From an uncultured bacterium (GTDB lineage Bacteria; Patescibacteriota; Minisyncoccia; UBA6257; 2-01-FULL-56-20), in contig OY970358.1 of assembly GCA_963718575.1 (NCBI GenBank), forward strand, positions 805,528 to 869,527: a stretch of 64,000 nucleotides of DNA, given 5' to 3'. Both the position numbers and the translations under genes were made by a program. Positions 56,925-58,431 of this stretch are shown here, one piece after another. How positions within the stretch are numbered: the first letter of the stretch is position 1; each line of letters begins with the position of its first letter. The notes under the pieces are model-generated. The model saw only the letters and a list, made by a program, of their open reading frames with translations. It did no database searches and was not told the origin of the DNA.

Positions 56925-57412
56925 TGCTGGTCATTCAGGCGGTCGCTGTACGACTATCACCCCCGGCCTTACAGCCCGGGATGGGTCGCGCAGAGGAAAG
57001 TCCGGACACTCTCTTTCTGCGTAACGCGAAAGTGTCGCGTGGAAAGATAAAATAGTAGCGGCTAACAGCCGCCGTTCGTAAGAATAGAGGTGCGAGCAGC
57101 GACGTTCATACTGGAAACGGTATGGAGGACCCCATCCCGAGCTCGATGGTCCAATTCCGCCATAGGGACAACAAAGCGGAAGTGAAACGGCAAAATCCTT
57201 ACTGAGTGCAAGGCCGTGCTCTCGCGATGATTCGCAAAGATCGGCGCGAGAGAGTGCCGCAGCGCCGCGCGTGCAAGCGCGTGGCACGAGCCCGCGAGCG
57301 ATCAAGGGCACAGATAAATGACCGTCCATCATGCGTCGCAAGGCGCATGGTCGACAGAATCCGGCTTATGGATTGCCAGCACAAAACAGCTCGAAAGGGC
57401 TGTTTTTGTTTG
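56925..57412 (+). ncRNA. rnpB: RNase P RNA (bacterial type A) with intrinsic terminator
   Basis: P4 strands AGGAAAGTCCGGAC and ACAGAATCCGGCTTA. P1 pairs TGCTGGTCATTC with GGATTGCCAGCA. Terminator ACAGCTC-GAAA-GGGCTGT plus T5. Confidence 0.8.
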
Positions 57413-57414
57413 TA

Positions 57415-57714
57415 GTGGGCGAAGTGTTAAGAGAGTACCCCCATAGCGTGATTACTTTCCAGCCCCGTGCTCTGAGCTTCAGAATATTTTTCTCATCTCT
57501 CCGACGAAGTGGTGAGGAATATCTTCCCAAGGAAGAAATCCAAGCCGCTTTTCTCGAGTTTGTAGAACAGATGAAGGCAATACGCATTTCCCCGAATAAC
57601 GCCGATATTTATATCGGTTGGTGGGGAAGCCAAGCGACCTTCGAAATCCCGCACCCTTTTTTGGAATTCGCTGCTGTTGCAAAAATTCCAGTTACCTTAG
57701 ACATAAACGACTGA
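57415..57714 (+). CDS. Hypothetical small protein (GTG start) within rnpB-associated cassette
   Basis: ...IYIGWWGSQATFEIPHPFLEFAAVAKIPV; a GGGCGC..GCGCCC plus T-run terminator at 57727-57760. Confidence 0.3.
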   Translation: MGEVLREYPHSVITFQPRALSFRIFFSSLRRSGEEYLPKEEIQAAFLEFVEQMKAIRISPNNADIYIGWWGSQATFEIPHPFLEFAAVAKIPVTLDIND

Positions 57715-58081
57715 CAAAATTATAATGGGCGCACTAGCAATAACTGGGCGCCCTTTTTCTTTTGCCAGCCTTAAACGTCCCGACTACCTCCGTGAAGCTG
57801 GCTGAAACCAGAAAGCAACACGTGGAAAGGGTGTGCTCTGAACTGAAGGAGGGCATGCGTAGGCCATGCTGCTGGCCGGGCTGTATGCACCGAACGGACA
57901 AACCATTAAGTCCTTCACAAAAATTTATGCTTGGAAGGAAATCTAAAAAGTAAACTAAAGTGGGCTAAGCGGTAGGAGAGCGTCTCAGACGAGAATTTAC
58001 GAAACCCCGCAGGGGCGTTTTTGATTGACATTTTCTATTAATTTATGTATCTTAATTTACGGTATAAAAAGGAGCGCTACG

Positions 58082-58327
58082 ATGAGAGTTTCACAACCGT
58101 TCACCATTGCCGGACACCAAATTTCCGGGCAACAGGTAAAATCCGCCGGGTCATTGCGTCTCAATGAGGGCGACCGCGTGCAGGTGCGCGATACGTATCC
58201 GGGACCGGCGGAGCTCCGTGGGCAATGCGGGAAGATCACCAAGAATCGCGGTCTTGGGAGATTCCATGTCGTTCTGGAGAACAAGGGTGAATCAGCCATT
58301 GACGGATGTTATTTGAATAAAATTTGA
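58082..58327 (+). CDS. Small hypothetical protein (81 aa) with own promoter, AAGGAG SD and terminator
   Basis: TTGACA at 58025, SD 7 nt before the ATG, and a hairpin plus T-run at 58353-58390. Confidence 0.55.
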   Translation: MRVSQPFTIAGHQISGQQVKSAGSLRLNEGDRVQVRDTYPGPAELRGQCGKITKNRGLGRFHVVLENKGESAIDGCYLNKI

Positions 58328-58397
58328 TAGCGGCCATGTTGGCCGTATCGCAGGCAGTTCTTCACACGGGCTGCCTGTTTCTTTTTATACTTGTGGG

Positions 58398-58431
58398 ATT
58401 GCCAGCACAAAACAGCCCTTTCGGGTTGTTT
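58398..58431 (+). repeat. Second copy of rnpB 3'-terminal 21-mer GGATTGCCAGCACAAAACAGC plus inverted terminator-like hairpin
   Basis: Exact match to 57370-57390. The following stem-loop (AACAGCCC-TTTC-GGGTTGTT) is the reverse complement of the rnpB terminator stem. Confidence 0.8.

Follow-up and report, generated by a model that had tools for sequence, protein, structure and literature searches.

The 3′ end of rnpB, which encodes RNase P RNA, as a probable insertion hotspot for small gene cassettes in a subclade of the Patescibacteria

The 3′ end of rnpB, the gene for the RNA component of RNase P, is probably an insertion hotspot in a subclade of the Patescibacteria (Candidate Phyla Radiation, CPR), where small cassettes would be captured serially by single crossovers. 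The locus on which this proposal is based lies in a stretch of 64,000 nucleotides (nt) from an uncultured bacterium of the Minisyncoccia (assembly GCA_963718575.1, contig OY970358.1, positions 805,528 to 869,527), which in its full length of 64 kb is called the window here. An initial annotation, made from the letters of the window only, had noticed that the last 21 nt of rnpB recur about 1 kb downstream and had read this repeat as the mark of integration of a single cassette with two genes. The reading as an integration site is supported by the comparison with relatives, which reveals both presence or absence and differing cassettes at this position, although we infer the action of an integrase itself. 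The view that a single cassette of ca. 1 kb with two genes was inserted did not survive: the interval reads as a composite of remnants, and the extra DNA relative to a cassette-free relative (L023; loci and contigs are designated by L numbers) amounts to 2.66 kb.

The rnpB gene of the window is of class A, with the universal P4 strands (GAGGAAAGUCCGG ... ACAGAAnCCGGCUUA) present and the P1 helix paired in the covariance-model alignment; the P4 strands GAGGAAAGTCCGG (about position 56993) and ACAGAATCCGGCTTA (about position 57354) can be read directly. Its score against RF00010 is 72 bits (E = 2e-21), below the gathering score of 100, because it contains several large insertions. A default Rfam scan at the gathering threshold consequently did not report the gene, which was recovered with an E-value threshold, and standard annotation misses both rnpB and the hotspot here. 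The rnpB genes of the relatives score between 37 and 106 bits (highest 105.9). That the proximal 21-mer represents the 3′ end of the RNase P RNA, including the 3′ strand of P1, agrees with the full-length RF00010 alignment, which ends at 57383. The features of the gene and its repeat are as follows.

56891 to 56919, forward strand: promoter-like site of rnpB (TTGTCA-17-TAGAAT, with TG before the -10 box), 8 nt upstream of the start of the model.
56927 to 57383, forward strand: rnpB, class A, divergent, with large insertions; positions 1-367 of the RF00010 model all aligned, without truncation.
57370 to 57390, forward strand: proximal 21-mer, comprising the 3′ strand of P1, the 3′ tail and the start of the terminator stem, followed by TCGAAAGGG from 57391.
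57383 to 57412, forward strand: rnpB terminator hairpin (GAAA loop) and T-run, with 22 nt identical to the terminator of the cassette-free L023.
58396 to 58416, forward strand: distal (displaced) 21-mer, with degenerate similarity 5′ to CTTGTGG (compare GGCTTAYGG), followed by CCTTTCGGG from 58417.
58409 to 58431, strand unassigned: inverted version of the rnpB terminator hairpin, which on the minus strand reads stem-GAAA-stem-TTTTGTG.

Without mismatches the 21-mer, GGATTGCCAGCACAAAACAGC, has just two occurrences in the window, both on the forward strand, and 100 dinucleotide-preserving shuffles yielded no match to it even when three mismatches were allowed. The repeat is thus exact as first described, although the distal copy had been placed 2 nt too high (58398-58418). 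Beyond the exact core the two sites share an imperfect similarity of 36 nt at 83%. Both copies lead into hairpins, of which one is the inverted form of the other, as the initial annotation had stated (57383-57406 versus 58409-58431, 91% reverse-complementary), with a GAAA loop in the proximal and a TTTC loop in the distal one and folding energies of -14.7 and -13.3 kcal/mol, respectively. On the minus strand, the distal hairpin may serve as terminator of a convergent gene encoding a membrane protein of 62 amino acids (aa), which is perhaps the reason for its retention; its stability on that strand is unremarkable (z = -1.6). The exact 21-mer also occurs once in an unrelated GC-rich contig (L020, Ga0210366_10078107, 417-437), apparently inside a coding region; one match is close to the chance expectation for a collection of that size, and we judged it a chance match rather than a related locus.

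Evidence for insertion comes from related genomes, whose rnpB loci were obtained from a metagenome scan with the 21-mer and a genome scan with CCGGYTTAYGGRTTGCCAGC, and whose records are assigned to Minisyncoccia, Paceibacterota or Parcubacteria. Upstream of rnpB, most of them share in synteny PGK, a gene of the DHH family and an RNase H-like gene; downstream synteny is found in individual relatives, i.e., a glyoxalase gene in L023 and L029 and pyruvate kinase in L052. L023 and L029 have an rnpB gene 82% identical to that of the window, the same 21-mer and the same terminator, with the glyoxalase gene ca. 70 nt further on. Since they pass directly from the rnpB terminator to the glyoxalase gene, the 2.66 kb at 57413-60075 of the window are extra. 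The objection, raised at the outset, that all relatives might share one identical arrangement therefore does not hold, as L023 and L029 are empty and others carry different cassettes. A search of each relative's locus with the 3′ end of the rnpB gene that it contains revealed displaced copies, 17-58 nt long, in L018, L022, L031 and L040 (two each), L042 (at a distance of 2 kb) and L057/L052 (several), and these six relatives have differing small genes downstream of rnpB. L023 and L029 gave no such copies, and neither did more distant relatives whose downstream sequence extends over 3-7 kb.

The clearest case of a cassette in different positions is that of L018 and L057: positions 74-699 of the former correspond to 6148-6773 of the latter at 96.8% identity, in the first array position in L018 and in the second in L057, where a further cassette of ca. 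380 nt precedes it and a second copy of AATCCGGCTTACGGATTGCCAGC stands at the junction. The alignment of the two shows where the junctions break. A C/T single-nucleotide polymorphism before GGATTGCC that distinguishes L018 from L057 seemed at first to place the crossover in AATCCGGCTTA, but this was given up as ambiguous because the reading depends on the base present in the ancestor of L057. Cassette genes also recur across different arrays, namely those of the OmdA family, of a family shared by L040 and L052, and of the family of an 81-aa protein encoded in the window.

Some further variation at the 3′ end of rnpB was observed. In L037 and L054 the rnpB 3′ pattern lies ca. 90-130 nt past the end of the covariance-model alignment, which suggests, as far as sequence can tell, either an extra insertion near the 3′ end of the gene or a displaced copy that lies very near a gene with a different 3′ end. 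In L030 (Minisyncoccia SPRUCE 130) the final ca. 140 nt of the locus contain GACAGAGCCCGGCTTATTAGTG straight after the rnpB terminator, a degenerate copy of the P4/P1 3′ region of rnpB with almost no insert in between, and the locus stops there.

The arrays share a conserved junction. In L018 each small gene after rnpB is followed by a four-part module of ca. 85 nt. It begins with a hairpin (GGGCGCACC-AGCAAYA-GGTGCGCCC) and its T-run, continues with a segment (G)CCAGCC..AA.C that resembles the 3′ tail of rnpB and with a second hairpin, and ends in TTTTTGATTGAC, whose TTGAC forms the -35 box of the next gene. Searching with a profile of the module recovered copies from L022, L040, L052, L057, L031, L033 and the window, always downstream of the anchor gene and co-oriented with it; in five genomes the module recurs next to unrelated cargo. 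The first hairpin is nearly invariant, the second varies in sequence between copies but keeps its pairing (by direct reading), and the border between the first hairpin and the rnpB-like segment is constant (...CTTTTG|CCAGCC), which is why we regard TTGCCAGC as common to module and rnpB. We rejected a generic intergenic repeat as the explanation: exact matches to the diagnostic motifs TTTTTGATTGA and GGGCGCACYAGCAAYA occur in the window only downstream of rnpB, and the motifs are absent from five Minisyncoccia loci that contain homologues of the 62-aa gene. The distal junction of the window (58340-58445) is homologous to two junctions of L031 that carry different cargo (81 and 78% identity, scores 62 and 58; shuffle maximum 31, run on the first comparison), and all three share a variant hairpin, a T-run and GGCTTAYGGATTGCCAGC. 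Because of this homology, the exact 21-mer is probably the preserved core of a repeat with an original length of at least 28 nt.

Between the two 21-mers of the window the following features were recognized.

57414 to 57430, forward strand: first displaced fragment of the 3′ end of rpsI, the gene for ribosomal protein S9, AGTGGGCGAAGTGTTAA (cf. ...QWAKR-stop).
57415 to 57714, forward strand: open reading frame (ORF) of 99 aa with GTG start, doubtful as a gene.
57727 to 57763, forward strand: cassette-end hairpin GGGCGCACTAGCAATAACTGGGCGCCC with T-run (-17.4 kcal/mol), the first half of a junction module.
57762 to 57783, forward strand: degenerate rnpB 3′ tail TTGCCAGCCTTAAACGTCCCGA, an internal junction scar, 73% identical to 57373-57394.
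57783 to 57953, forward strand: C-terminal remnant (the last 56 codons) of an OmdA/YdeI-family gene, 'orf63'.
57958 to 58000, forward strand: second displaced rpsI 3′-end fragment, AAGTGGGCTAAGCGGTAG, together with its flank and an rnpB 3′ fragment shortened by deletion.
58001 to 58053, forward strand: junction hairpin of a second type and TTTTTGATTGACA, whose TTGACA is the -35 box of the orf81 promoter (-10 box TATCTT).
58082 to 58327, forward strand: gene for the 81-aa protein (orf81), cassette cargo.
58350 to 58388, forward strand: orf81 terminator hairpin with T-run (-17.6 kcal/mol), a variant of the cassette-end hairpin that is shared with two L031 junctions.

In order, the interval thus starts with the rnpB terminator, an rpsI scar that overlaps the start of the 99-aa ORF, and a cassette-end hairpin with a degenerate rnpB tail (hairpin and tail at 57727-57783), and continues with the OmdA remnant, the rpsI/rnpB scar with its hairpin and promoter, orf81 and the cassette-end hairpin of orf81. 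Read in this way, the ca. 1 kb is made up of the remnants of three or more cassettes, with junction scars in its interior. A possible GTG-start ORF had indeed been proposed here; it encodes 99 aa instead of 100 and is doubtful as a gene because its start sits inside an rpsI fragment, and it gave no match in Pfam or PHROG and no tblastn match in the related loci. The scar TTGCCAGCCTTAAACGTCCCGA is very similar to the tail that rnpB itself has in L022. The OmdA remnant is 71% identical in aa sequence to genes in the L034 and L026 arrays; the 107-aa sequence of L034 matches PF13376 (E = 1e-16), whereas the remnant itself does not match this family.

The intact gene of the interval, orf81, possesses a promoter-like site (TTGACA-17-TATCTT, 58025-58053), a Shine-Dalgarno sequence (AGGAG, 58070-58074) and a terminator (58350-58378), as described initially. 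Its protein has no match in Pfam or PHROG, and a word-indexed protein search returned only the protein itself, whereas an exhaustive search gave five distant matches, among them P0002, P0003 and P0006 at 43-56% identity. The genes of the small homologues P0002 and P0003 end in a terminator hairpin of the orf81 type, that of P0002 lies just upstream of pyruvate kinase, and no integrase was seen in the contexts of the distant homologues. The fold of the orf81 protein is repeated six to seven times in tandem in the very large proteins P0004 (1608 aa) and P0005 (1018 aa), and the orf81 protein may thus be regarded as a free-standing copy of a repeat domain.

The rpsI fragments point to a second anchor gene. 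In L026 and L034 the motif TGGGCGAAGCGTTAA is where rpsI ends (...QWAKR-stop), and it occurs only twice in the window, at 57414-57430 and 57958-57975, although the 64 kb contain no rpsI gene; among the best 120 matches to S9, none lies on the 881,652-nt contig, so that the rpsI locus of the source genome is not among them. L026 possesses an intact rpsI gene and, 1.85 kb later, an exact direct repeat of 31 nt of its 3′ end, with an rnpB 3′ fragment and two genes between the copies. The displaced rpsI copy of L034, located 3.6 kb downstream, passes directly into an rnpB 3′ fragment with a hairpin and TTGAC; region 57950-58040 of the window is a deleted version of this composite junction (score 67, shuffle maximum 31). 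The L026 and L034 loci contain no rnpB gene, and, judged from these sequences, rpsI there anchors arrays of the same kind as those behind rnpB.

We propose the following course of events. Units of 0.4-2 kb, usually consisting of one gene with its own promoter and terminator, would enter successively by single-crossover (Campbell-type) recombination within or beside the 3′ strand of P1, around the core TTGCCAGC. After each insertion the 3′ end of rnpB would again be complete, terminator included, and a duplicate of this end would come to lie at the far side of the insert. Repeated insertion, deletion and exchange between arrays would then result in a string of cassettes divided by junction scars, and, as the rpsI fragments indicate, cassettes would also pass through the 3′ end of rpsI as a second anchor. 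The exact 21-mer at 58396-58416 would be the far-edge scar of the most recent insertion, which would have brought the ca. 1 kb, including the intact 81-aa gene, as one unit that was already composite; this follows from the outer repeat being exact and the inner scars being degenerate. Small circular intermediates and the exact point of crossover belong to the conjectural part of this scheme, as does a site-specific recombinase that would act in trans from another place in the genome or from a helper element. Such an enzyme is favored because the TTGCCAGC boundary is constant and the adjacent hairpin invariant.

Several observations weigh against this proposal. The left boundary of the displaced fragments varies (ACAGAATCC, AATCC, TCCGG, GGCTTA, GGATT, CCAGC), so that no single fixed crossover or attP is evident. 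Preservation is better in the distal scar than in those inside the insert, which demands the assumption that the insert entered as one composite unit. The terminator of L023 is identical over 22 of 22 nt to the proximal hairpin of the window and differs from the distal one, whereas the simplest model, in which attL joins host and element, would predict a match of the distal hairpin, unless the incoming unit had the same terminator. Within the species neither an empty site nor a circular-junction variant was encountered, all contigs being at least 99.9% identical and cassette-bearing; since the species is seen in occupied form only, current mobility is conjectural. A recombinase is also lacking in the regions covered: Pfam detected neither a tyrosine nor a serine recombinase in the substantial ORFs tested from the arrays of the relatives, no recombinase domain was recognized in the window at 57.4-60.1 kb or, according to annotation, at 48-64 kb, and none was present among 30 ORFs tested from 1-43 kb, five ORFs of at least 170 aa at 22.9-47.7 kb having been left unscanned. 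Likewise, the rnpB 3′ pattern occurs on no viral contig of IMG/VR and the 21-mer had no match there. The absence of an integrase among the tested ORFs of the window and of the relatives' arrays fits the decayed remnant or non-autonomous element originally suspected.

The substantial array ORFs of the relatives encode, according to Pfam, surface proteins with peptidoglycan-binding, PKD and fn3 domains, CHAP-domain and OmdA proteins, and furthermore HD, LCM-type methyltransferase, DinB_2, amino-acid permease, RibD_C, MIP, dienelactone hydrolase and Rce1-like proteins, besides many orphans. The sole mobility gene among those tested encodes a Mutator-family (PF00872) transposase with, by eye, an N-terminal zinc-ribbon-like motif, and lies, on the minus strand, inside two different rnpB-anchored arrays:

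L019, 1110 to 2105, minus strand: Mutator-family transposase.
L031, 3194 to 4015, minus strand: Mutator-family transposase.

It probably represents an insertion sequence and is unlikely to be the inserting enzyme, as most arrays have no such gene; transposases of this family are not known to produce site-specific repeats of 20-50 nt. Forty-nine viral-contig matches to a 16-mer of the cassette-end hairpin were discarded as chance, since they showed no similarity outside the seed. A large serine recombinase (Resolvase, Recombinase and Zn_ribbon_recom domains) is encoded together with HTH and Fic genes at 9974-11629 of L119, which, like L120 (10268-10677), is a locus near a homologue of the 62-aa gene in another Minisyncoccia genome. 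Next to the homologue, L120 has a variable slot that holds an OmdA gene. No junction modules were found at the L119 and L120 loci.

The most serious competitor, although we consider it rather improbable, accepts the same hotspot and arrays and dispenses with a dedicated recombinase. Ordinary homologous recombination between the repeated junctions of 20-85 nt would let cassettes loop out and re-enter or travel as free DNA through natural transformation, and a cassette carrying an rnpB or rpsI fragment could integrate at the gene concerned. The lack of a recombinase in any array is what this explanation predicts, and the variable left boundaries of the displaced fragments suit it equally well. 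Junctions with both rpsI and rnpB fragments would make either anchor usable, and displaced copies reach 51-58 nt at 93-95% identity. A possible trace of such exchange is seen in L006 (ERZ27250073, 771 nt), which over the 477 nt of 58012-58488, with orf81, the distal 21-mer and its hairpin, has a single mismatch to the window and switches at 58488, inside the 62-aa gene, to a diverged allele of that gene (MKRPLWIYIVGV...AMYIAVHLYRWK), so that the cassette side is identical and the other side diverged; the switch is either a breakpoint of homologous recombination between strains or an assembly chimera. In several cases, however, including that of the window, the homology measures only 17-25 nt, and homology of this length is a poor substrate for RecA-type recombination. 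Moreover, the commonest type of junction has a precise, constant TTGCCAGC boundary next to a nearly invariant hairpin, as a specific site would, and the origin of the anchor fragments in the first cassettes is left unexplained.

A more speculative reading, which we likewise consider rather improbable, is that these arrays represent a new type of cassette capture in Patescibacteria, in which the 3′ ends of essential genes (rnpB and rpsI) are the fixed entry sites and the module of ca. 85 nt is the recombination site. That site would consist of the GGGCGCACC-AGCAAYA-GGTGCGCCC hairpin with its T-run, the TTGCCAGC core and the second hairpin ending in a -35 box. The addition and shuffling of one-gene, promoter-bearing cassettes would be the work of a recombinase whose gene lies in another place, or of an enzyme that has so far escaped recognition as a recombinase, and the system would be a functional analogue of integrons, unrelated to them.

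Far less probable than either is that replication slippage or template switching duplicated the rnpB 3′ end with its terminator locally and that the copy was retained as terminator of the 62-aa gene, with non-mobile genes in between. The inversion of the distal hairpin relative to the proximal one might be the outcome of quasi-palindrome template switching, the minus strand does present a GAAA loop and T-run right after the 62-aa gene, and the arrangement is fixed in all populations sampled. Yet the minus-strand hairpin is not unusually stable, and a local event does not explain why six other genomes show the phenomenon with other inserts, why an identical cassette stands at different places in two arrays, why junction modules are conserved next to unrelated cargo, or why a window without rpsI contains rpsI fragments; the comparative data thus largely refute it. 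An artefact of sequencing or assembly, which the initial annotation had named as an objection and for which one might cite the uninformative contig breaks near the proximal copy (L003 starts at 57360, L015 ends at 57365), is ruled out for practical purposes because three independent metagenome contigs from different samples and assemblers (L001, L002 and L003, from JGI 3300041431, SRR13781587 and ERR11563597) span both 21-mers with at least 99.9% identity to the window, and because the two copies differ in their flanks and hairpins.

Beyond the distal copy the following features lead back to conserved synteny.

58445 to 58633, minus strand: gene for the 62-aa membrane protein, missing at this position in L023; the family is found in other contexts elsewhere.
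58735 to 59926, forward strand: two accessory genes (192 aa; 172/178 aa) with their own promoters and terminators, missing in L023.
60076 to 60499, forward strand: resumed synteny with the cassette-free relative, with the glyoxalase gene at 60098-60499 (88% aa identity).

The 62-aa gene was considered as a core neighbor marking the empty site and rejected in this role, since its family sits in unrelated contexts elsewhere. No junction scars were recognized in the region of the two accessory genes. Upstream of rnpB, at 55558-56820 on the minus strand, lie two XRE regulator genes and a 121-aa ORF, none of which is conserved in the relatives. The two XRE genes had been identified correctly (Pfam HTH_3/HTH_19), but the label NUMOD3-like for the third could not be maintained, as the 121-aa protein has no Pfam match. 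The interval between the RNase H-like gene and rnpB ranges from ca. 465 nt in L030 to ca. 1400 nt in the window, so that the upstream side is also variable; it contains no array signature, just short repeats of low identity. About 7 kb upstream of rnpB, at 48081-50500, the annotation of L001 gives an 800-aa DUF87/T4SS-DNA_transf (VirD4/TraG-like) ATPase.

If the proposed hotspot is real, RNase P RNA would join the short list of stable RNAs that serve as entry points (tRNA, tmRNA and recently ffs), and a route would be indicated by which uncultured bacteria with tiny genomes and few recognizable mobile elements gain and exchange accessory genes. Tiny, self-expressed cassettes would then stack behind essential genes, with a cargo that includes surface, CHAP-domain and transport proteins and many orphans, and the junction module together with the two anchors would provide a handle in the search for arrays across the Patescibacteria and for a co-occurring recombinase.

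Among known systems, the islands in tRNA and tmRNA genes (Islander type, with tyrosine integrases; PMC4383910) are similar in that a stable-RNA target is regenerated and its displaced 3′ fragment forms the direct repeat at the far end, as is seen at rnpB, and in that relatives differ by presence or absence at the exact point of insertion, here the 3′ end of rnpB, where L023 and L029 are empty and L018 and L057 differ by one cassette. Islander-type islands are, however, multi-gene and defined by their integrase (PMC4383910), whereas the rnpB inserts measure 0.4-2 kb and have none. The gene ffs was reported as a new RNA-gene target in 2025 (PMC12540744); for rnpB we found no report in the searchable literature, the coverage of which is incomplete.

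The additive islands built by tycheposons in Prochlorococcus (10.1101/2020.12.28.424599) likewise arise in streamlined genomes by serial insertion at one site, which pushes older elements inward and leaves partial anchor copies and degraded remnants scattered. Tycheposons possess a tyrosine recombinase and replication genes, measure several kb and use tRNA and tmRNA sites, while the present arrays have neither recombinase nor replication gene, are anchored at rnpB and rpsI, and share a conserved two-hairpin module at their junctions. Also similar are the streptococcal elements that target the 3′ end of rpsI (PMC5357655), with direct repeats, tandem accretion and many decayed elements that lack recombination genes and are flanked by att sites. 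The arrays resemble cis-mobilizable elements (CIMEs) in that att-type direct repeats flank them, recombination genes are absent and similar units lie in tandem, the rpsI site included. The streptococcal elements belong to Bacillota and, when intact, encode integrases and relaxases, whereas no intact member was seen here; the units described here hold one gene each, and fragments of two anchor genes are mixed within one array.

With integron arrays they have in common co-oriented one-gene units added at one end, variable cargo, a conserved structured element between cassettes and the lack of a recombinase inside the cassettes. They differ in that no intI lies beside the array (upstream are the two XRE genes and the 121-aa ORF without Pfam match) and in that the junctions consist of two consecutive terminator-like hairpins with T-runs next to a TTGAC -35 box, which by eye do not resemble attC, a single imperfect palindrome with R/L boxes. 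Moreover, integron cassettes are mostly promoterless and enter at attI, while each cassette here has a promoter and the entry point lies inside an essential RNA gene. What appears to be new is the gene that serves as anchor, the group of hosts, the self-expressed cassettes of unusually small size, the conserved junction module and the mixed scars of two anchors.

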